From Escherichia coli (GTDB taxonomy: Bacteria > Pseudomonadota > Gammaproteobacteria > Enterobacterales > Enterobacteriaceae), in NCBI RefSeq assembly GCF_003018255.1, contig NZ_CP027440.1: DNA of 64,000 nucleotides. One strand, written 5' to 3'. Made by a program: the position numbers and the translations under genes. This document shows positions 6,138 through 18,633 of the stretch, in pieces. The notes under the pieces were generated by a model, which worked only from the letters and a program-made list of their open reading frames with translations, made no database searches and was not told the origin of the DNA. How positions within the stretch are numbered: position 1 is the first letter of the stretch; the number at the start of each line of letters is the position of its first letter.

Positions 6138-8567
6138 GTGTCGTCGTTGCCCGTTGCTGCCGTCTTACCTGAGTTACTTGCTGCTCTCGATTGTGCATCG
6201 CAGGTGTTATTAAGTGCGCCGACCGGGGCCGGGAAATCAACCTGGCTGCCGCTGCAACTGCTGGCGCATCCCGGCATTAACGGGAAAATTATCCTGCTGG
6301 AGCCGCGTCGTCTGGCGGCGCGTAACGTTGCGCAACGACTGGCGGAGCTGCTTAACGAAAAGCCAGGCGATACCGTTGGCTACCGGATGCGTGCGCAAAA
6401 CTGCGTCGGGCCGAATACCCGCCTGGAAGTGGTTACCGAAGGCGTGCTGACGCGGATGATCCAGCGTGACCCGGAACTGAGCGGTGTTGGATTGGTGATC
6501 CTTGATGAATTTCATGAGCGCAGCTTGCAGGCGGATTTGGCGTTGGCGCTGTTACTCGATGTGCAACAAGGTCTGCGTGATGACCTTAAACTGCTGATTA
6601 TGTCGGCTACGCTGGACAACGACCGCTTGCAGCAAATGCTGCCAGAAGCGCCCGTCGTCATCTCAGAAGGGCGCTCGTTTCCGGTTGAACGCCGTTATTT
6701 GCCGCTGCCCGCTCATCAGCGTTTTGACGAAGCCGTCGCGGTTGCCACCGCCGAAATGCTGCGTCAGGAAAGTGGATCATTACTGTTATTTTTACCTGGC
6801 GTCGGAGAAATTCAGCGTGTGCAGGAACAACTGGCTTCACGCATCGGCAGTGATGTGTTGCTCTGCCCGCTGTATGGCGCGTTGTCGCTGAACGATCAGC
6901 GAAAAGCGATCCTCCCGGCACCGCAAGGGATACGTAAAGTGGTGCTGGCGACCAATATTGCTGAAACCAGTTTAACCATCGAAGGTATTCGTCTGGTGGT
7001 GGATTGTGCCCAGGAGCGTGTGGCGCATTTTGATCCGCGTACAGGGCTTACGCGGCTGGTTACTCAACGCGTTAGTCAGGCGTCGATGACGCAACGTGCC
7101 GGGCGTGCCGGGCGTCTGGAGCCGGGTATCTGCCTGCATTTAATCGCCAAAGAACAAGCAGAACGCGCTGCCGCGCAAAGTGAACCGGAGATCTTACAAA
7201 GCGATCTTTCCGGTTTGCTGATGGAATTACTGCAATGGGGATGCAGCGATACGGCGCAGATGAGCTGGCTGGATCAACCGCCAACGGTGAATCTACAGGC
7301 CGCGAAACGGCTGTTACAAATGCTGGGGGCGCTGGAGGGTGAACGGCTTAGCGCACAAGGGCAAAAAATGGCAGTGCTGGGTAGCGATCCGCGTTTAGCG
7401 GCAATGCTGGTTAGCGCGAAGAACGACGACGAAGCTGCTACCGCGGCAAAAATTGCCGCCATTCTCGAAGAGCCGCCACGGATGGGCAATAGTGACCTGG
7501 GCGTGGCGTTTTCGCGCAATCAACCCGCCTGGCAGCAACGTAGTCAGCAACTGTTAAAACGCTTAAACGTACGCGGCGGTGAGGCAGACAGTTCGCTTAT
7601 CGCGCCGCTACTTGCCGGGGCGTATGCCGATCGCATTGCTTGTCGCCGTGGGCAAGATGGACGCTATCAACTGGCAAACGGCATGGGGGCGATGCTCGAT
7701 GCCGACGATGCGCTAAGCCGCTACGAATGGTTGATCGCACCGTTATTATTGCAGGGCAGCGCCTCGCCGGATGCGCGGATTTTACTGGCGCTACCGGTCG
7801 ATATCGATGAATTAGTACAACGCTGTCCGCAGCTGGTACAGCAGTCGGACACCGTGGAATGGGATGACGCGCAAGGCACGCTGAAAGCCTGGCGTCGGCT
7901 GCAAATCGGTCAGTTGACGGTGAAAGTGCAGCCACTGGCGAAACCCTCGGAAGACGAGTTGCATCAGGCGATGCTTAACGGCATCCGTGATAAAGGTTTA
8001 AGCGTGCTCAACTGGACGGCGGAAGCGGAACAGCTACGCTTGCGTTTGTTATTCGCCGCAAAGTGGTTGCCGGAATATGACTGGCCAGCGGTTGATGATG
8101 AGAGTTTGTTGGCGACGCTGGAAACGTGGCTACTGCCGCATATGAGCGGCGTGCATTCACTACGCGGCCTGAAATCACTCGACATTTATCAGGCGCTACG
8201 CGGATTACTTGATTGGGGAATGCAGCAACGTCTGGATAGTGAATTGCCTGCGCATTACACTGTGCCGACGGGAAGCCGGATCGCCATTCGTTATCATGAA
8301 GATAAACCGCCCGCGCTGGCGGTGAGAATGCAGGAGATGTTTGGTGAGGCCACCAATCCGACGATCGCCCAGGGGCGCGTGCCGCTGGTGCTGGAGTTGC
8401 TTTCCCCTGCCCAAAGGCCATTACAAATCACACGAGATTTGAGCGCCTTCTGGAAAGGAGCGTACCGTGAGGTGCAAAAAGAGATGAAAGGGCGTTATCC
8501 CAAACATGTCTGGCCGGACGACCCGGCAAATACTGCACCGACGCGACGGACGAAAAAGTATTCGTGA
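6138..8567 (+). CDS. hrpB: ATP-dependent RNA helicase HrpB (DEAH-box)
   Basis: ORF track 6093..8567 (+). Walker A APTGAGKST and DEFHER motif. Start placed at GTG 6138 (MSSLPVAAVLPELL..., 809 aa); the upstream ATG at 6093 is the alternative. Confidence 0.88.
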   Translation: MSSLPVAAVLPELLAALDCASQVLLSAPTGAGKSTWLPLQLLAHPGINGKIILLEPRRLAARNVAQRLAELLNEKPGDTVGYRMRAQNCVGPNTRLEVVTEGVLTRMIQRDPELSGVGLVILDEFHERSLQADLALALLLDVQQGLRDDLKLLIMSATLDNDRLQQMLPEAPVVISEGRSFPVERRYLPLPAHQRFDEAVAVATAEMLRQESGSLLLFLPGVGEIQRVQEQLASRIGSDVLLCPLYGALSLNDQRKAILPAPQGIRKVVLATNIAETSLTIEGIRLVVDCAQERVAHFDPRTGLTRLVTQRVSQASMTQRAGRAGRLEPGICLHLIAKEQAERAAAQSEPEILQSDLSGLLMELLQWGCSDTAQMSWLDQPPTVNLQAAKRLLQMLGALEGERLSAQGQKMAVLGSDPRLAAMLVSAKNDDEAATAAKIAAILEEPPRMGNSDLGVAFSRNQPAWQQRSQQLLKRLNVRGGEADSSLIAPLLAGAYADRIACRRGQDGRYQLANGMGAMLDADDALSRYEWLIAPLLLQGSASPDARILLALPVDIDELVQRCPQLVQQSDTVEWDDAQGTLKAWRRLQIGQLTVKVQPLAKPSEDELHQAMLNGIRDKGLSVLNWTAEAEQLRLRLLFAAKWLPEYDWPAVDDESLLATLETWLLPHMSGVHSLRGLKSLDIYQALRGLLDWGMQQRLDSELPAHYTVPTGSRIAIRYHEDKPPALAVRMQEMFGEATNPTIAQGRVPLVLELLSPAQRPLQITRDLSAFWKGAYREVQKEMKGRYPKHVWPDDPANTAPTRRTKKYS

Positions 8568-8660
8568 AGACCAAAGCAAATTTGAGAGATATCTTCTTCT
8601 GTCTTGCAACAGAAGAACAGAAAATCGGGCTTTTGCGCCTGAATATTGCGGAGAAAAAGC

Positions 8661-11192
8661 ATGGCCGGGAATGACCGCGAGCCAATTGGACGCAAAGGGA
8701 AACCGACGCGTCCGGTCAAACAAAAGGTAAGCCGTCGTCGTTACGAAGATGACGATTACGACGATTATGATGACTATGAGGATGAAGAACCGATGCCGCG
8801 CAAAGGTAAGGGCAAAGGCAAAGGGCGTAAGCCTCGTGGCAAACGCGGCTGGCTATGGCTGCTGCTAAAACTGGCTATCGTTTTTGCCGTGCTGATCGCC
8901 ATTTACGGCGTTTATCTCGATCAAAAAATTCGCAGCCGTATTGATGGCAAGGTCTGGCAATTGCCCGCGGCAGTTTATGGCCGAATGGTCAACCTTGAGC
9001 CAGACATGACCATCAGCAAGAACGAAATGGTGAAGCTGCTGGAGGCGACCCAGTATCGTCAGGTGTCGAAAATGACCCGTCCTGGCGAATTTACCGTGCA
9101 GGCCAACAGCATTGAGATGATCCGCCGTCCGTTTGATTTCCCGGACAGTAAAGAAGGGCAGGTGCGTGCGCGTCTGACCTTTGATGGCGATCATCTGGCG
9201 ACGATCGTCAATATGGAGAACAACCGTCAGTTTGGTTTCTTCCGTCTTGATCCGCGCCTGATCACCATGATCTCCTCGCCAAACGGTGAGCAGCGTTTGT
9301 TTGTGCCGCGCAGTGGTTTCCCGGATTTGCTGGTGGATACTTTGCTGGCGACAGAAGACCGCCATTTCTACGAGCATGATGGGATCAGTCTCTACTCCAT
9401 CGGACGTGCGGTGCTGGCAAACCTGACCGCCGGACGCACGGTGCAGGGTGCGAGTACGCTGACGCAACAGCTGGTGAAAAACCTGTTCCTCTCCAGCGAG
9501 CGCTCTTACTGGCGTAAAGCGAACGAAGCTTACATGGCGCTGATCATGGACGCGCGTTACAGCAAAGACCGTATTCTTGAGCTGTATATGAACGAGGTGT
9601 ATCTCGGTCAGAGCGGCGACAACGAAATCCGCGGCTTCCCGCTGGCGAGCTTGTATTACTTTGGTCGCCCAGTAGAAGAATTGAGCCTCGACCAGCAGGC
9701 GCTGTTGGTGGGTATGGTGAAAGGGGCGTCCATCTACAATCCGTGGCGTAACCCGAAACTGGCGTTGGAGCGACGTAATCTGGTACTGCGTCTGCTGCAA
9801 CAGCAACAGATTATTGATCAAGAACTCTATGACATGTTGAGTGCACGTCCGCTGGGGGTTCAGCCGCGCGGTGGGGTGATCTCTCCACAGCCAGCCTTTA
9901 TGCAACTGGTGCGTCAGGAGCTGCAGGCAAAACTGGGCGATAAGGTAAAAGATCTCTCCGGCGTGAAGATCTTCACTACCTTTGACTCGGTGGCCCAGGA
10001 CGCGGCAGAAAAAGCCGCCGTGGAAGGCATTCCGGCACTGAAGAAACAGCGTAAGTTGAGCGATCTTGAAACCGCGATTGTGGTCGTCGACCGCTTTAGT
10101 GGTGAAGTTCGTGCGATGGTTGGAGGTTCTGAGCCGCAGTTTGCGGGCTACAACCGTGCGATGCAGGCGCGTCGTTCGATTGGTTCCCTTGCAAAACCAG
10201 CGACTTATCTGACGGCCTTAAGCCAGCCGAAAATCTATCGCCTGAACACGTGGATTGCGGATGCGCCAATCGCGCTACGTCAGCCGAATGGCCAGGTCTG
10301 GTCACCGCAGAACGATGACCGTCGTTATAGCGAAAGCGGCAGAGTGATGCTGGTAGATGCGTTGACCCGTTCGATGAACGTGCCGACGGTGAATCTGGGC
10401 ATGGCGTTGGGGCTGCCTGCGGTTACGGAGACCTGGATTAAACTGGGTGTGCCGAAAGATCAACTGAATCCAGTTCCAGCAATGTTGTTGGGGGCGTTGA
10501 ACTTAACGCCAATCGAAGTGGCGCAGGCGTTCCAGACCATCGCCAGCGGTGGTAACCGTGCTCCGCTTTCTGCACTGCGTTCGGTAATCGCGGAAGATGG
10601 CAAGGTGCTGTATCAGAGCTTCCCGCAGGCGGAACGCGCTGTTCCGGCGCAGGCGGCGTATCTGACACTATGGACCATGCAGCAGGTGGTACAACGTGGT
10701 ACGGGGCGTCAGCTTGGGGCGAAATACCCGAACCTGCATCTGGCAGGGAAAACAGGGACTACCAACAATAACGTAGATACCTGGTTTGCGGGCATTGACG
10801 GCAGTACGGTGACCATCACCTGGGTAGGCCGTGATAACAACCAACCGACCAAATTGTATGGAGCCAGCGGGGCAATGTCGATTTATCAGCGTTATCTGGC
10901 TAACCAGACGCCAACACCGCTGAATCTTGTTCCGCCAGAAGATATTGCAGATATGGGCGTGGACTATGACGGCAACTTTGTTTGCAGCGGTGGCATGCGT
11001 GTCTTGCCGGTCTGGACCAGCGATCCGCAATCGCTGTGCCAGCAGAGTGAGATGCAGCAGCAGCCGTCAGGCAATCCGTTTGATCAGTCTTCTCAGCCGC
11101 AGCAACAGCCGCAACAGCAACCTGCTCAGCAAGAGCAGAAAGACAGCGACGGTGTAGCCGGTTGGATCAAGGATATGTTTGGTAGTAATTAA
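8661..11192 (+). CDS. mrcB: Penicillin-binding protein 1B (bifunctional glycosyltransferase/transpeptidase)
   Basis: ORF track 8646..11192 (+); start at [13 protein letters not shown]...; acidic [14 protein letters not shown] tract, TM helix [29 protein letters not shown] and SxxK motifs, Q/P-rich C-terminus. Confidence 0.93.
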
Positions 11193-11411: not shown

Positions 11412-13601
11412 ATGGCGCGTTCCAAAACTGCTCAGCCAAAACACTCACTGCGTAAAATCGCAGTTGTAGTAGCCACAGCGGTTAGCGGCATGTCTGTTTA
11501 TGCACAGGCAGCGGTTGAACCGAAAGAAGACACTATCACCGTTACCGCTGCACCTGCGCCGCAAGAAAGCGCATGGGGACCGGCTGCAACTATTGCGGCG
11601 AAGCACTCTGCTACTGCGACTAAAACGGATACACCAATTGAAAAAACGCCGCAGTCTATTTCGGTTGTGACAAATGAAGAGATGCAGATGCATCAATTTC
11701 AGTCTGTAAAAGAAGCATTAGGTTATACACCTGGCGTTACGGTTAGCAGTCGTGGTGCTTCTAATACATATGATTTTGTTATTATTCGTGGTTTCTCATC
11801 TGTTGGTCTGAATCAAAATAATTACCTTGATGGACTAAAACTTCAGGGCAACTTTTATAACGATGCTGTGATTGATCCTTACATGCTCGAGAGGGTTGAA
11901 CTGATGCGCGGGCCGACGTCTGTTCTCTATGGGAAAAGTAATCCTGGTGGGATTATTTCTATGGTGAGTAAGCGTCCGACAACTGAACCCCTGAAAGAAA
12001 TTCAGTTTAAAATGGGGACGGATAATCTGTTTCAGACCGGATTCGATTTCAGTGATGCGCTGGATGATAACGGTGAGTTCTCCTACCGTTTGACTGGCCT
12101 CGCACGCTCAACAAACGAACAGCAGAAAAACTCTGAATCTCAGCGTTATACCATTGCTCCATCATTCTCATGGCGTCCAGACGACAAAACCAATTTTACT
12201 TTCCTGTCCTATTTTCAGAACGAACCAGAAACGGGTTATTACGGTTGGTTGCCGAAAGAGGGGACCGTTGAGCCATTGCCTAATGGTAAGCGTCTACCGA
12301 CTGACTTCAATGAAGGTGCATCGAATAATACATACTCCCGTAACCAGAAAATGGTGGGATATAGTTTTGAACATGGTTTTAATGACACCTTCACCGTGCG
12401 TCAGAATCTGCGTTTCAGTGAAATGAAAACCTCACAGAAAAGTGTTTATGGCACAGGGATTGCCAGCGATGGTCATACCCTAAACCGCGGGACAGTGGTG
12501 GATAATGAGCGTCTGCAAAACTTTAGCGTTGATACCCAACTTGAAAGTAAATTTGCTACAGGTGAAGTCGAGCATACTTTGCTGACAGGGGTAGACTTCA
12601 TGCGTATGCGCAATGATATCAATGCCAGCTTTGGATCTGCACCATCCATCGATCTTTATAACAAATATCATCCTGAATACTTTGCATTTGGTAACGCAGA
12701 GCCATACCAAATGAATGAAAGCAAACAAACAGGTATTTATGTTCAGGATCAGGCGGAATGGAATAAATGGGTATTCACTCTGGGGGGACGCTACGATTGG
12801 TCTAAGCAAGCGACCACTGTTCGTGAAAACTCTTATACGCCGACTGAAGGTTATATTGAGCGTAATGATCATCAGTTCACCTGGCGCGGTGGTGTAAACT
12901 ACTTATTCGATAATGGTATTTCACCTTACTTTAGTTATAGCCAGTCCTTTGAACCGAGTGCTTTCGATCTGTGGAGCAACCCGCGCGTTTCCTATAAGCC
13001 ATCGAAAGGTGAACAGTATGAAGCTGGCGTAAAATATGTTCCGAATGATATGCCGGTCGTTGTTACGGGCGCAGTCTATCAATTGACGAAAACAAATAAC
13101 CTGACAGCAGACCCAACAAACCCGTTAGCGCAAGTCCCAGCAGGTGAGATTCGCGCTCGTGGTGTGGAACTTGAAGCAAAAGCGGCGTTAAATGCCAATA
13201 TTAACTTGACGGCTTCTTATACCTACACAGATGCGGAATACACCAAAGACACCAATCTCAAAGGTAAAACTCCAGAACAAGTACCGGAGCATATGGCATC
13301 TCTCTGGGGGGATTATACCTTCAATGAAGGGCCGCTTTCTGGTTTAACATTGGGAACAGGTGGTCGTTTTATTGGTTCCAGCTATGGTGATCCGGCGAAC
13401 ACTTTTAAAGTGGGTAGCGCAGCTGTAATGGATGCTGTTGTAAAATATGATCTGGCACGCTTTGGTATGGCGGGATCCAGCCTTGCTGTGAACGTCAACA
13501 ATTTGCTCGATCGTGAGTATGTTGCCAGTTGCTTCCAGACCTATGGCTGCTTCTGGGGCGCAGAACGTCAGGTCGTTGCAACCGCAACCTTCCGTTTCTA
13601 A
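11412..13601 (+). CDS. fhuA: Ferrichrome outer-membrane transporter / phage receptor FhuA (TonB-dependent), divergent allele
   Basis: ORF track 11412..13601 (+), 729 aa; signal peptide MARSKTAQPKHSLRKIAVVVATAVSGMSVYAQA, TonB box DTITVTA, C-terminal ...CFWGAERQVVATATFRF. Confidence 0.93.
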   Translation: MARSKTAQPKHSLRKIAVVVATAVSGMSVYAQAAVEPKEDTITVTAAPAPQESAWGPAATIAAKHSATATKTDTPIEKTPQSISVVTNEEMQMHQFQSVKEALGYTPGVTVSSRGASNTYDFVIIRGFSSVGLNQNNYLDGLKLQGNFYNDAVIDPYMLERVELMRGPTSVLYGKSNPGGIISMVSKRPTTEPLKEIQFKMGTDNLFQTGFDFSDALDDNGEFSYRLTGLARSTNEQQKNSESQRYTIAPSFSWRPDDKTNFTFLSYFQNEPETGYYGWLPKEGTVEPLPNGKRLPTDFNEGASNNTYSRNQKMVGYSFEHGFNDTFTVRQNLRFSEMKTSQKSVYGTGIASDGHTLNRGTVVDNERLQNFSVDTQLESKFATGEVEHTLLTGVDFMRMRNDINASFGSAPSIDLYNKYHPEYFAFGNAEPYQMNESKQTGIYVQDQAEWNKWVFTLGGRYDWSKQATTVRENSYTPTEGYIERNDHQFTWRGGVNYLFDNGISPYFSYSQSFEPSAFDLWSNPRVSYKPSKGEQYEAGVKYVPNDMPVVVTGAVYQLTKTNNLTADPTNPLAQVPAGEIRARGVELEAKAALNANINLTASYTYTDAEYTKDTNLKGKTPEQVPEHMASLWGDYTFNEGPLSGLTLGTGGRFIGSSYGDPANTFKVGSAAVMDAVVKYDLARFGMAGSSLAVNVNNLLDREYVASCFQTYGCFWGAERQVVATATFRF

Positions 13602-15339: not shown

Positions 15340-17318
15340 GTAAACGAATTGCGCTTTTTCCGGCGTTATTGCTGGCGCTGCTGGTGATTGTCGCTACGGC
15401 GCTCACCTGGATGAACTTCTCGCAGGCGTTGCCGCGCAGCCAGTGGGCGCAGGCCGCCTGGTCGCCGGATATTGACGTCATCGAGCAGATGATTTTTCAC
15501 TACAGCTTGTTGCCGCGTCTGGCGATTTCGCTGCTGGTGGGCGCGGGCCTGGGGCTGGTGGGCGTGCTGTTTCAGCAAGTGCTGCGTAACCCGCTGGCGG
15601 AACCGACGACGTTGGGCGTTGCAACAGGCGCGCAACTGGGGATTACCGTCACTACGCTCTGGGCGATCCCAGGTGCTATGGCGAGCCAGTTTGCTGCGCT
15701 GGCAGGGGCTTGCGTTGTTGGCTTAATTGTCTTTGGCGTCGCGTGGGGGAAACGGCTGTCGCCGGTAACGCTGATCCTCGCGGGGCTGGTAGTGAGCCTT
15801 TATTGTGGGGCAATCAATCAGTTACTGGTTATCTTCCATCACGACCAGCTACAAAGCATGTTCCTGTGGAGCACCGGAACGCTGACGCAAACCGACTGGG
15901 GCGGCGTTGAGCGTTTATGGCCGCAGCTGCTGGGCGGCGTGATGCTGACGTTATTGCTACTTCGCCCGTTAACCCTGATGGGGCTTGATGATGGCGTGGC
16001 GCGCAATCTCGGTCTGGCCTTGTCGCTGGCGCGTCTGGCGGCGCTGTCGCTGGCGATAGTCATCAGTGCGCTGCTGGTGAATGCAGTGGGGATTATCGGC
16101 TTTATCGGGTTGTTCGCGCCGCTGCTGGCAAAAATGCTGGGGGCGCGGCGTCTGCTGCCACGGTTAATGCTGGCGTCGCTGATTGGTGCGTTAATTCTGT
16201 GGCTTTCTGATCAAATCATCCTCTGGCTGACTCGCGTGTGGATGGAAGTTTCCACCGGTTCGGTCACTGCGTTGATCGGTGCGCCGCTGCTACTGTGGCT
16301 GCTGCCGCGTTTACGCAGCATTAGCGCGCCGGATATGAAGGTCAACGATCGTGTCGCGGCTGAACGCCAACATGTGCTGGCGTTTGCCCTCGCGGGCGGC
16401 GTGCTGCTGTTGATGGCTGTGGTAGTGGCGCTGTCGTTTGGTCGTGATGCGCACGGCTGGACGTGGGCGAGCGGGGCGTTGCTCGAGGATTTAATGCCCT
16501 GGCGCTGGCCGCGAATTATGGCGGCGCTGTTTGCGGGCGTCATGCTGGCGGTGGCGGGCTGTATTATTCAGCGGCTGACCGGAAACCCGATGGCAAGCCC
16601 GGAAGTGCTGGGGATTAGCTCCGGCGCGGCGTTTGGCGTGGTGTTGATGCTGTTTCTGGTGCCGGGTAATGCCTTTGGCTGGCTGTTACCTGCAGGCAGT
16701 CTCGGCGCGGCGGTGACGCTGTTGATCATTATGATCGCCGCCGGACGCGGTGGATTTTCCCCACACCGCATGTTACTGGCGGGGATGGCGTTAAGTACCG
16801 CGTTCACCATGCTTTTGATGATGTTGCAGGCAAGTGGTGACCCGCGAATGGCGCAAGTGCTGACCTGGATCTCCGGTTCGACCTACAACGCGACCGATGC
16901 GCAGGTCTGGCGCACGGGAATTGTGATGGTAATTTTGCTGGCGATTAACCCGCTGTGCCGCCGCTGGCTGACCATTTTACCGCTGGGCGGTGATACCGCA
17001 CGAGCCGTAGGAATGGCGCTGACGCCGACGCGAATTGCGCTGCTGCTATTAGCGGCTTGCCTGACGGCGACCGCGACGATGACTATTGGACCGTTGAGTT
17101 TTGTTGGTTTAATGGCACCGCATATTGCGCGGATGATGGGTTTTCGACGGACGATGCCACACATCGTAATTTCGGCGCTGGTGGGTGGTTTACTGCTGGT
17201 GTTCGCTGACTGGTGTGGGCGGATGGTATTGTTTCCATTCCAGATCCCGGCGGGGCTGCTGTCAACCTTTATCGGCGCGCCATATTTTATCTATTTGTTG
17301 AGAAAGCAGAGCCGTTAA
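15336..17318 (+). CDS. fhuB: Iron(III)-hydroxamate ABC transporter permease (fused duplicated domains)
   Basis: ORF track 15336..17318 (+), 660 aa; GTG start overlapping fhuD stop by 4 nt; two homologous halves, highly hydrophobic. Confidence 0.93.
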   Translation: MSKRIALFPALLLALLVIVATALTWMNFSQALPRSQWAQAAWSPDIDVIEQMIFHYSLLPRLAISLLVGAGLGLVGVLFQQVLRNPLAEPTTLGVATGAQLGITVTTLWAIPGAMASQFAALAGACVVGLIVFGVAWGKRLSPVTLILAGLVVSLYCGAINQLLVIFHHDQLQSMFLWSTGTLTQTDWGGVERLWPQLLGGVMLTLLLLRPLTLMGLDDGVARNLGLALSLARLAALSLAIVISALLVNAVGIIGFIGLFAPLLAKMLGARRLLPRLMLASLIGALILWLSDQIILWLTRVWMEVSTGSVTALIGAPLLLWLLPRLRSISAPDMKVNDRVAAERQHVLAFALAGGVLLLMAVVVALSFGRDAHGWTWASGALLEDLMPWRWPRIMAALFAGVMLAVAGCIIQRLTGNPMASPEVLGISSGAAFGVVLMLFLVPGNAFGWLLPAGSLGAAVTLLIIMIAAGRGGFSPHRMLLAGMALSTAFTMLLMMLQASGDPRMAQVLTWISGSTYNATDAQVWRTGIVMVILLAINPLCRRWLTILPLGGDTARAVGMALTPTRIALLLLAACLTATATMTIGPLSFVGLMAPHIARMMGFRRTMPHIVISALVGGLLLVFADWCGRMVLFPFQIPAGLLSTFIGAPYFIYLLRKQSR

Positions 17319-17324
17319 TAGAAT

Positions 17325-17345
17325 GCCTCGCCCGGTGGGCGAGGC
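17325..17345. terminator. Hairpin gcctcgcc-cggtg-ggcgaggc between convergent fhuB and hemL (candidate bidirectional terminator)
   Basis: Read from sequence; occupies most of the 34-nt fhuB-hemL spacer. Confidence 0.4.
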
Positions 17346-17352
17346 AAAATCA

Positions 17353-18633
17353 TCACAACTTCGCAAACACCCGACGTGCAGCATCGATGGTGTTATTGAT
17401 ATCTTCCATGCTGTGCGCCACGGACATAAAGCCCGCTTCAAACGCTGACGGTGCCAGATAAACACCTTCGTCCAGCATCATATGGAAGAAACGCTTAAAG
17501 CGTTCCACGTCACAGGCCATCACATCCTGATAGCACGTCACGGACTCGGCGTCGGTAAAGAAAATACCGAACATGCCGCCAACGTGGTTTACCACCAGCG
17601 GAATTCCGGCTTCTTCTGCCGCTTCCAGCAGACCTTCTGCCAGACGTGTTGTCAGCTCATCCAGCGTCTCGTGAACGCCCGGCTGTGCGACTTCATTCAG
17701 ACAGGCGAAACCAGCTGCCATCGCAATCGGGTTACCGGAAAGCGTACCCGCCTGATAGACCGGACCAGTCGGGGCCAGCGCATCCATTACATCACGACGA
17801 CCACCGAATGCGCCTACCGGCATTCCACCGCCGATGATTTTGCCGAGGCAGGTTAAATCTGGCACTACGCCGTAATAATCCTGTGCGCCAGCTAGCGCTA
17901 CGCGGAAACCGGTCATCACTTCATCGATGATCAGCAACGCGCCAAATTCGTCACACAGCGCACGCAGACCTGGCAGGAACTCTGGCAGCGGTGGAACGCA
18001 GTTCATATTGCCTGCCACCGGCTCGACGATAATACAGGCAATCTCATGCGGGTACTGTTCGAACGCGGCGCGTACAGAGGCCAGATCGTTATAAGTACAG
18101 GTTAAGGTATGTTTGGCGAAATCTGCCGGAACACCCGGCGAGTTTGGCTGGCCTAACGTGAGTGCGCCAGAACCGGCTTTCACCAGCAGGCAGTCAGCGT
18201 GACCGTGGTAACAACCTTCAAATTTAATGATTTTGTCGCGACCGGTAAAACCACGGGCCAGGCGGATTGCGCTCATGGTCGCTTCAGTGCCGGAGTTCAC
18301 CATGCGCACCATATCCATGGTCGGGACCAGTTCGGTCACCAGTTGCGCCATTTTCACTTCCATTTCGGTCGGTGCACCAAAGCTTAAACCACGCTCGGCG
18401 GCTTCAATCACGGCATTGCGGATCGCCGGATGGTTATGGCCCAGCACCATCGGCCCCCAGGAACCGACATAATCGATATAGGCTTTGCCATCAACATCGT
18501 ACAGATAAGCGCCGTCCGCTTTTTCGATAAACAGTGGAGTGCCGCCCACGCCAGTAAAGGCGCGAACAGGGGAGTTCACACCGCCAGGGATCAGCTCGCG
18601 CGCTGCGCTGTAAAGATTTTCAGACTTACTCAT
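17353..18633 (-). CDS. hemL: Glutamate-1-semialdehyde 2,1-aminomutase
   Basis: ORF track 17353..18633 (-), 426 aa, [26 protein letters not shown]...; class III aminotransferase. Confidence 0.96.

Follow-up and report, generated by a model that had tools for sequence, protein, structure and literature searches.

The presence or absence of BoxC and REP/BIME elements in the intergenic spacers of Escherichia coli is textbook variation, and stabilising hairpins are known from the leaders of enterobacterial mRNAs, for example that of ompA. Holder et al. (2015) equate the repeats that they call TMECO with the older names BoxC and PIT (PMC4666352). They list 23 TMECO copies in total in MG1655 and report that BoxC loci are polymorphic for presence and absence among E. 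coli strains, with pairs that collapse to single hairpins (PMC4666352). Intrastrand triplex formation by BoxC was shown in vitro in that paper by CD and NMR. A BoxC unit is recognised by three consecutive blocks, in the order CCCTCNCCC, loop, GGGAGAGGG, loop (CCG or TTA) and GGGTGAGGG. REP/BIME elements (Stern 1984, Gilson 1984 and Bachellier 1994, as reviewed in PMC3184786) are imperfect extragenic palindromes of about 35 nt, of the type GCC(G/T)GATG...CATC(C/A)GGC with a CTAC tail, that occur in many dispersed copies.

Here we describe two compact spacers, between hrpB and mrcB and between fhuB and hemL, in a window of 64,000 nt from an E. coli genome. Over 25 kb the window matches two human isolates from Japan at 100% identity, and it matches at ~99% a group of isolates, mainly from poultry, humans and other animals, that includes APEC O2-211. 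Both spacers were aligned with those of K-12 MG1655 (NC_000913.3), their alleles were counted in 5,426 complete E. coli genomes, and for the wider comparison the hrpB-mrcB locus was collected from 80 species with PBP1b as the query (E. fergusonii is absent from these 80 loci). We conclude, with a probability of about 90%, that both spacers represent the alleles without repeats at two sites of ordinary intergenic insertion/deletion polymorphism in E. coli. One of them, hrpB-mrcB, also contains a conserved hairpin that does not belong to the polymorphism and that most likely forms part of an RNA element in the mrcB leader.

Results

Two compact spacers and their counterparts in K-12

The hrpB-mrcB spacer of the window measures 93 nt between the gene ends at 8567 and 8661, and the fhuB-hemL spacer 34 nt between fhuB, ending at 17318, and hemL on the minus strand, ending at 17353 (Table 1). 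The translated ends that flank the first spacer agree with HrpB (...TRRTKKYS*) and PBP1b. Both lengths had been given in a preliminary description of this DNA, and the gene ends bear them out. The same description put the K-12 spacers at some 100-120 nt longer, and this estimate agrees with the MG1655 genome: there the hrpB-mrcB spacer occupies 164535-164729 (195 nt, 102 nt longer than in the window) and the fhuB-hemL spacer 173445-173601 (157 nt, 123 nt longer). Far from being the same in K-12 in length and sequence, both spacers differ in the alignment.

The description further suggested, with low confidence, that small intergenic repeats, present in some strains and absent from others, account for the difference. 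The alignment with K-12 supports this, as it reveals discrete repeat blocks in K-12 and none in the window. At hrpB-mrcB a BoxC pair is missing. A simple absence of repeats does not describe fhuB-hemL, where one allele replaces another and the two have no common sequence. No repeat_region feature is annotated in either spacer in the RefSeq feature table of K-12.

Table 1. Features of the two spacers and their surroundings (positions in the window)
Feature	Position	Strand	Remarks
String identical to the 51-nt K-12 mrcB promoter/TSS sequence	8218-8268	+	0 mismatches; PMC3415461 supplementary file 2
hrpB stop codon TGA	8565-8567	+	TAA in all BoxC-bearing 131/132/195-nt alleles
hrpB-mrcB spacer, 93-nt allele without BoxC	8568-8660	+	Same length in CFT073 and IAI39
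14-nt variable slot AGACCAAAGCAAAT, directly after the hrpB stop	8568-8581	+	From the comparison of 80 species; position of the BoxC pair in K-12
79-nt block in the distal mrcB leader: TTGAGAGAT, hairpin, GAAAATC, small hairpin, GGAG, ATG	8582-8660	+	Conserved across Enterobacteriaceae
Hairpin noted in the preliminary description, arms 8594-8602 and 8609-8617	8594-8617	+	Family-wide helix 8594-8603 with 8608-8617
Second small conserved hairpin, CGGGC/GCCTG	8626-8641	+	Nearly invariant; sole variation one G-U to A-U
mrcB Shine-Dalgarno GGAG (8650-8653) and start ATG (8661-8663)	8650-8663	+	GGAGA invariant in the alignment
fhuB-hemL spacer, compact 34-nt form, single-copy, not a repeat	17319-17352		3,707 genomes, one place each
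GC-rich hairpin followed by UUCUAUUA on the minus strand, candidate hemL intrinsic terminator	17324-17346	-	Terminator-like call and fold

K-12 carries a BoxC pair between hrpB and mrcB

At hrpB-mrcB, the extra block of K-12 consists of BoxC (PIT/TMECO) triplex-hairpin repeats that form an inverted pair of ~102 nt. It starts within the hrpB stop codon, which is TAA in K-12 and TGA in the window, and reads GGTTGGTTTTCT-CCCTCTCCCTGTGGGAGAGGGCCGGGGTGAGGGC-ATCAGCGCGCACGTTC-ACCCTCACCCTAACCCTCTCCCTCAAGGGAGAGGG-GACCGATCGAGCAC. Its two units are TMECO 1 (164547-164580, sense, type B) and TMECO 2 (164631-164597, antisense, type A) of Table 1 in PMC4666352, and were catalogued as HPGQ 5 and 6 by Kaplan et al. 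2016 (PMC5100583); the pair is one of five such inverted pairs in MG1655. Only the Watson-Crick hairpin was folded in our analysis, and this gave one long hairpin of -73.9 kcal/mol (z = -8.3). Whereas K-12 has the three-block sequence of the unit, the BoxC core pattern has no match in the whole 64-kb window, including the spacer at 8568-8660, and the window carries an empty or scar allele with no unit. The RU-3 element (103 bp, Delihas 2007) was also considered as the 102-nt insert of K-12 and was rejected; its published sequence is a REP pair (tatgccggatgcggcg...; PMC2759123 Table 1b) and the similar length is coincidental.

The K-12 allele is intergenic and multicopy, and at megablast stringency a 95-nt query from it finds 2 places in the median genome and at most 5. 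A single-hairpin BoxC unit with the same flanks also occurs between phnE and phnD in another strain. Two further alleles at hrpB-mrcB contain one hairpin each, the 131-nt allele retaining the GT loop and the 132-nt allele the CAA loop. Both appear to be collapse products of the pair, given that a deletion between the two copies of GGGAGAGGG or the two copies of CCCTCTCCCT would leave exactly these forms. Holder et al. termed such collapse the 'palindrome effect' (PMC4666352).

A BIME and a terminator-like hairpin alternate between fhuB and hemL

Between the stop codons of fhuB and hemL, the alleles of the window and of K-12 have nothing in common in the alignment. The 157-nt spacer of K-12 is a cluster of three REP-like palindromes (BIME), including TGCCCGATGCGACGC..GCGTCTTATCGGGCCTAC and GTAGGTCGGATAAGGCGT..ACGCCGCATCCGACA, in the classic BIME location between convergent genes. 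Parts of this spacer are found at 9 places in the median genome, with 84-91% identity across roughly half of the query, and are therefore repeat DNA. In contrast, there is no REP unit in the window spacer 17319-17352, which consists almost wholly of a unique hairpin; a 73-nt query from the window finds exactly one place in each genome that carries the compact allele.

The preliminary description did not mention this hairpin, although it is much stronger than the one at 8594-8617 that it did mention. The stem has 10 bp, of which 8 are G-C pairs, and closes a 3-nt loop (-20.6 kcal/mol, z about -5 to -5.4), with an energy equalled by none of 200 shuffles. The stem is invariant in the three sampled variants, where SNPs are confined to the loop and flanks. 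Like described intrinsic terminators, it combines a predicted G+C-rich stem-loop with an immediate U-rich tract, the tract being imperfect (5 U in 8), and the scan that covered it found 2 terminator-like sites where 0.5 were expected. Its most probable role, in our view, is that of an intrinsic terminator for hemL. Read on the fhuB strand, the hairpin precedes AAAAUCA, so that the predicted terminator would work in one direction at best. Kosakonia, Pluralibacter, Buttiauxella and others likewise have single-hairpin fhuB-hemL spacers, of 35-45 nt, between these convergent genes. K-12, which does not have the hairpin, is reported to have Rho-dependent termination regions at 173376(+) and 173016(-), in or near the fhuB end (PMC7815308 supplementary file 2). 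In a search at permissive E-values, the best Rfam 15 match in the region 17100-17600 scored 16.9 bits (E = 1.2), far below the gathering score.

Two Escherichia lineages outside E. coli also have the 157-nt BIME allele (89% and 96% identity), which is therefore old and not a novelty of K-12. The compact allele may be the derived state, a polarity read from these two non-coli lineages; the E. albertii contig stops short of this spacer.

Allele frequencies in E. coli

Among the 5,426 complete genomes, the 93-nt hrpB-mrcB junction of the window occurs in 1,883-1,902 (about 35%) and the BoxC-pair junction in 3,235 (60%). The 132-nt allele was counted in 68 genomes, and other forms, including the 131-nt allele, amount to about 220 by subtraction; collapsed (131/132-nt) or other forms together make up about 5% (about 287 genomes, likewise by subtraction). 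A count of the 131-nt allele by a 35-mer returned 582 matches, which is an overcount because the unit is also present at phnE-phnD in some genomes. At fhuB-hemL, the compact 34-nt form prevails (3,707 genomes, 68%) over the 157-nt form of K-12 (1,701 genomes, 31%). The window therefore has the minority form at hrpB-mrcB but the majority form at fhuB-hemL, and K-12 is not the norm at the latter.

The combination seen in the window (93 nt at hrpB-mrcB, 34 nt at fhuB-hemL) is exactly that of CFT073 and IAI39. IAI1 and O157:H7 Sakai have 195 and 34 nt, and MG1655 has 195 and 157 nt. We take CFT073 to belong to phylogroup B2, IAI39 to F, MG1655 to A, IAI1 to B1 and Sakai to E. By these usual assignments of five reference strains, the 93/34 combination goes with B2 and F; strains of A, B1 and E are distinguished by the BoxC pair, and those of A also by the BIME.

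A repeat slot shared by the Enterobacteriaceae

Across the 80 species the spacers span 78-509 nt at hrpB-mrcB and 34 to >500 nt at fhuB-hemL. The length variation at hrpB-mrcB lies entirely in one slot, which extends from the hrpB stop codon to an invariant TTGAGAG. In Buttiauxella, Citrobacter youngae and Trabulsiella the slot is reduced to 1-3 nt. It has 14 nt in the window, E. albertii and Escherichia sp. MOD1-EC7003, and also in CFT073 and IAI39. Salmonella and most Citrobacter have one or two REPs in this position, while BoxC units, often followed by a canonical terminator, fill it in Enterobacter, Leclercia, Lelliottia, Pseudocitrobacter, Cedecea and two further Escherichia lineages (L010 and L011). 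The slot thus has the appearance of a family-wide landing or retention site for different small repeats.

The polarity of the E. coli polymorphism can be read in two ways. The short allele could be ancestral and never occupied, the BoxC pair having entered by a single insertion in the ancestor that phylogroups A, B1 and E share. This history, to which we give slightly under even odds, agrees with the sharing of the 93-nt allele and its TGA stop by E. albertii, Escherichia sp. MOD1-EC7003, CFT073 (B2) and IAI39 (F), and with the 195-nt allele in MG1655 (A), IAI1 (B1) and Sakai (E), the phylogroups being those assumed above. However, BoxC occupies the same slot in all of the genera and Escherichia lineages just listed for it, and adding an insert to the short allele does not yield the long one, since the private filler of the short allele, AGACCAAAGCA, is missing from the long one. 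Within this filler, 8 of the 10 bases of GACCAAAGCA can be aligned to the right-hand end of the BoxC unit, GACCGATCGAGCACA, and likewise to the flank after BoxC in Escherichia L010. That this right-hand end is part of the repeat itself is shown by its recurrence at ygfF-gcvP, lldD-trmL and phnE-phnD. When the short allele is compared with the L010 allele, a clean 48-nt BoxC indel is seen right after the TGA. These features suggest the opposite polarity, in which the short allele would be an old deletion scar of a BoxC unit that had been in the slot since the ancestor of the family. At both spacers the direction of evolutionary change is something that we infer from such sequence comparisons.

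The hairpin upstream of mrcB is a conserved and covarying element

The preliminary description had reported a hairpin in the hrpB-mrcB spacer with the arms ttcttctg and cagaagaa. The hairpin is present, with these arms at 8594-8601 and 8610-8617, but its loop is tcttgcaa, of 8 nt and not 7; pairing of T8602 with A8609 gives a 9-bp stem and a 6-nt loop. This AT-rich hairpin is not part of the polymorphism and is not strain-specific. On the window sequence alone it folds no better than chance (-10.1 kcal/mol, z = -1.56, with 18 of 200 shuffles folding as well), and it gains significance only from the comparison with other genera. As it has no U-tract, it is not a canonical terminator of hrpB either.

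The 79-nt block that precedes the mrcB ATG is conserved in all genera sampled, with 28 invariant columns in 74 distinct sequences. The outer stem, TTCTT/AAGAA, hardly varies. The inner stem is fully replaced between genera yet remains complementary (CTGTC/GACAG, TCACC/GGTGG, CCTCC/GGAGG, TCGGC/GCCGA), and the 74 sequences contain 48 distinct inner-stem haplotypes. In the helix 8594-8603/8608-8617, 92.7% of cells are paired, versus 49-57% in controls that slide the 3' partner by 1-3 columns; double-change cells number 82 versus 11-49 in the slid controls, and the covariation score is 0.295 versus at most 0.145. Four pairs of the helix have 12-24 double changes each, 6 pair types occur at one position, and RNAalifold independently predicts the inner six pairs. 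Invariant single-stranded purine-rich tracts flank the hairpin.

Within the stem, G.T pairs outnumber A.C pairs by 77 to 21, and this asymmetry indicates selection on the plus-strand RNA. As in conserved structured RNAs, compensatory changes have arisen in independent lineages and on the transcribed strand. A covariance model built from the alignment has exactly one match per locus, always abutting mrcB, also in Klebsiella and Raoultella. In K. pneumoniae, hrpB and mrcB are 15 locus tags apart (PMC3415461 supplementary file 6), so the element belongs to mrcB and not to hrpB. The 79-nt block therefore most likely acts as RNA. Rfam 15 matches in the region 8300-8900 reached at best 13-18 bits (E 5-10), far below the gathering scores, and a literature search for sRNA or Hfq control of mrcB found nothing relevant.

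Conservation of the block could alternatively come from coding or translational coupling rather than from RNA structure, if it encoded a short uORF. A 30-codon, TTG-initiated frame at 8582-8674 overlaps the mrcB start, and it is open in the window and in Enterobacter sp. In Salmonella, however, this frame has an in-frame stop at codon 13, and 1-nt indels fall within the block in Buttiauxella, Cedecea and related sequences. Its TTG is not preceded by a Shine-Dalgarno sequence, and the variation in the block is concentrated at paired stem positions, where it preserves complementarity and not codon position. We reject the uORF as highly improbable.

The block and the slot lie within the mapped mrcB leader

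In K-12 MG1655 the mrcB TSS was mapped to 164235, inside hrpB, which gives a leader of 495 nt, and in K. pneumoniae to 191247, with a leader of 296 nt (PMC3415461 supplement). The K-12 promoter string is identical in the window (Table 1), which places the equivalent TSS at 8268 and implies a leader of 393 nt, as opposed to 495 in K-12. The Klebsiella mrcB promoter is 215 nt upstream of the conserved block (locus L046). Since the TSSs of both E. coli and Klebsiella are mapped upstream, the block and the repeat slot are inside the mapped leader. The supplements of Mendoza-Vargas 2009 contain only an antisense intragenic site for mrcB, and those of SMRT-Cappable-seq contain no mrcB entry.

The mrcB hairpin thus resembles structured 5' UTR elements of the ompA type in that it is located in a transcribed leader, with an inner stem conserved in structure rather than in sequence. 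Unlike them, it lies away from the mapped 5' end, 326 nt beyond the equivalent TSS.

A different explanation for the hairpin at 8594-8617 is that it is a DNA promoter feature, never fully transcribed, and not an RNA element. TTGAGA would be the -35 element of the main mrcB promoter, the stem would be its 17-bp spacer, and the loop would contain the -10 element (TGCAAC in the window, TGTAAC in K-12). Genomic SELEX detected in vitro binding of the RpoD holoenzyme to this spacer, with TTGAGA-17-TGTAAC as the predicted promoter (PMC3946193), and RpoH, RpoF and RpoE holoenzymes also bind at map position 164658 (PMC5493296). TTGAGA is invariant in 74/74 sequences and marks the upstream edge of conservation. 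Yet the hexamer 17 bp downstream of it does not resemble a -10 element in Salmonella (CCTGGC) or Enterobacter (TTCGGT), so that such a promoter fits Escherichia only; scans of 8300-8900 for sigma-70 promoters and for terminators found nothing; and the mapped E. coli and Klebsiella TSSs are 215-420 nt upstream of the block. Nor does a promoter explain the compensatory changes that keep the stem paired, and the excess of G.T over A.C pairs has no explanation at the level of DNA. We therefore regard the promoter explanation as unlikely, and the action of the block as RNA as the better account.

Discussion

The location of the slot, within a long mrcB leader and at the 3' end of hrpB, could give the BoxC polymorphism a consequence for transcription. 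Term-seq of K-12 detected RNA 3' ends closely behind BoxC units, one at 164636(+), which is 5 nt beyond the BoxC pair, and one at 3781065(+), which is 4 nt beyond TMECO 17, downstream of lldD (PMC7815308 supplements). BoxC hairpins thus coincide with RNA 3' ends at two sites, either by termination or by a block to exonucleases. As Holder et al. relate, Maher and colleagues had earlier seen no promoter or terminator activity of PIT/BoxC elements (PMC4666352), so the 3' end in K-12 may reflect exonuclease trimming and not termination. By its position, the BoxC hairpin of K-12 would create an RNA 3' end that the allele of the window cannot form. In strains with the window-type allele, transcripts from hrpB and from the hrpB-internal promoter would run on more freely into the leader and mrcB. 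At the compact fhuB-hemL spacer, hemL transcripts would end intrinsically at the window hairpin followed by UUCUAUUA on the hemL strand. Terminator function and an effect on mrcB expression are what we infer from the positions of these elements. If most mrcB transcription starts downstream of the slot, from a promoter near 164658, the polymorphism would not affect mrcB. That the block is a cis-regulatory RNA controlling PBP1b synthesis, and that the BoxC pair, in ~60% of E. coli, is in addition a 3'-end-forming barrier in the leader, is a doubtful proposal that we put forward only tentatively.

Presence or absence of BoxC and REP/BIME elements is an already documented kind of variation, and the BoxC pair of K-12 had already been catalogued. 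The compactness of the two spacers as such matters little, beyond the useful caution that K-12 is not equivalent to a reference state. To this our analysis adds the allele frequencies, a slot that holds different repeats across 80 species, the association of the alleles with the hrpB stop codon, and the placement of the slot inside the mapped mrcB leader. It also adds that the spacer hairpin is a conserved, covarying mrcB leader element without a described function, and this is the only lead worth following.

The gene downstream, mrcB, encodes PBP1b, a major cell-wall synthase and beta-lactam target. In one transcriptome study mrcB mRNA was somewhat higher in B2 strains (PMC10580932), which is compatible with an effect of the allele but not specific, because most peptidoglycan synthesis genes were also higher there. 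If the leader RNA and the BoxC barrier both operate as proposed, expression of a major peptidoglycan synthase would differ between phylogroups through a small repeat polymorphism. Should either the hairpin or the repeat polymorphism affect PBP1b levels, it would represent a new layer of cell-wall gene control.

Repeat units in the hrpB-mrcB and fhuB-hemL spacers

The stop codon of hrpB (window positions 8565-8567) goes with the allele of the hrpB-mrcB spacer. The 93-nt alleles, the type present in the window, end hrpB with TGA, as does the 137-nt allele of the Escherichia lineage L010, and all alleles with a K-12-type BoxC unit (131, 132 and 195 nt) have TAA. Because the choice of TGA or TAA tracks the spacer allele, the stop codon either contains the boundary of the repeat or sits directly at it.

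BoxC and BoxC-like units were also seen at other sites. E. coli CFSAN018748 carries a single-hairpin unit in the phnE-phnD spacer (L099, 395-435), and its flanks are the same as those in the 131-nt hrpB-mrcB allele (GTTTTCT...CCCTGTGGGAGAGGG-GACCGATCGAGCACA). Since these flanks are shared by two spacers, they are part of the repeat unit itself. The fhuB-hemL spacer of Kosakonia oryzendophytica (L036, 18682-18719) is compact, and its 38 nt form a BoxC-like hairpin (CCCCCTCTCCC-TGGT-GGGGAGAGGGG), so that in another genus, too, a BoxC-type stem is all the structure that separates fhuB from hemL.

Variants at the fhuB-hemL junction and in coding length

In the window, fhuB ends in tandem stop codons, TAA-TAG (17316-17321); CFSAN018748, with TAATTG, is the sole sampled variant that differs there. 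The query for the compact fhuB-hemL allele matched at 99% identity or above in only 614 of 3,707 genomes. E. coli FDN-24 (L090, NZ_CP158147.1 559892-561313) has a deletion across the junction, and its fhuB and hemL are each annotated as a C-terminally truncated pseudogene. The truncation of hemL is surprising; it may be an assembly error, or its loss may be compensated elsewhere.

Strains differ in 3-nt steps within the mrcB codons that encode an acidic tract (window, about 8736-8790). Matches of 690, 693 and 696 nt all have the 93-nt spacer, and these steps against a constant spacer indicate that a short repeat in the cytoplasmic N-terminal tail of PBP1b is polymorphic in length, with the reading frame kept. 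The fhuA reading frame of the window (11412-13601) has 729 codons, compared with 747 in K-12 and 752 in CFT073, and is a length variant of the receptor for ferrichrome and phages T1 and T5.

A conserved block upstream of mrcB

Features of the mrcB leader region
Feature	Window coordinates	Remarks
Conserved block directly 5' of mrcB, 79 nt	8582-8660	Also in L008-L087 (80 enterobacterial species)
Hairpin within the block	8594-8617	Covaries

Across L008-L087, conservation of the block extends throughout the Enterobacteriaceae, with covariation in its hairpin. In Escherichia sp. E1V33 (L011, 9870-10000), identity to E. coli is only 84-92% over the final 600 nt of hrpB. The slot between the hrpB stop and the block (52 nt) is identical to that of the E. 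coli 131-nt allele, and 78 of 79 positions of the block match E. coli. The adjoining coding DNA is less conserved than this non-coding stretch, due to either selection or local gene conversion.

A covariance model of the block gives one match per locus, including those of Klebsiella and Raoultella, and no Rfam family matches it. Mapped 5' UTRs of mrcB contain the 79 nt, and the block may be an RNA element in the leader of the PBP1b gene that has so far gone undescribed.
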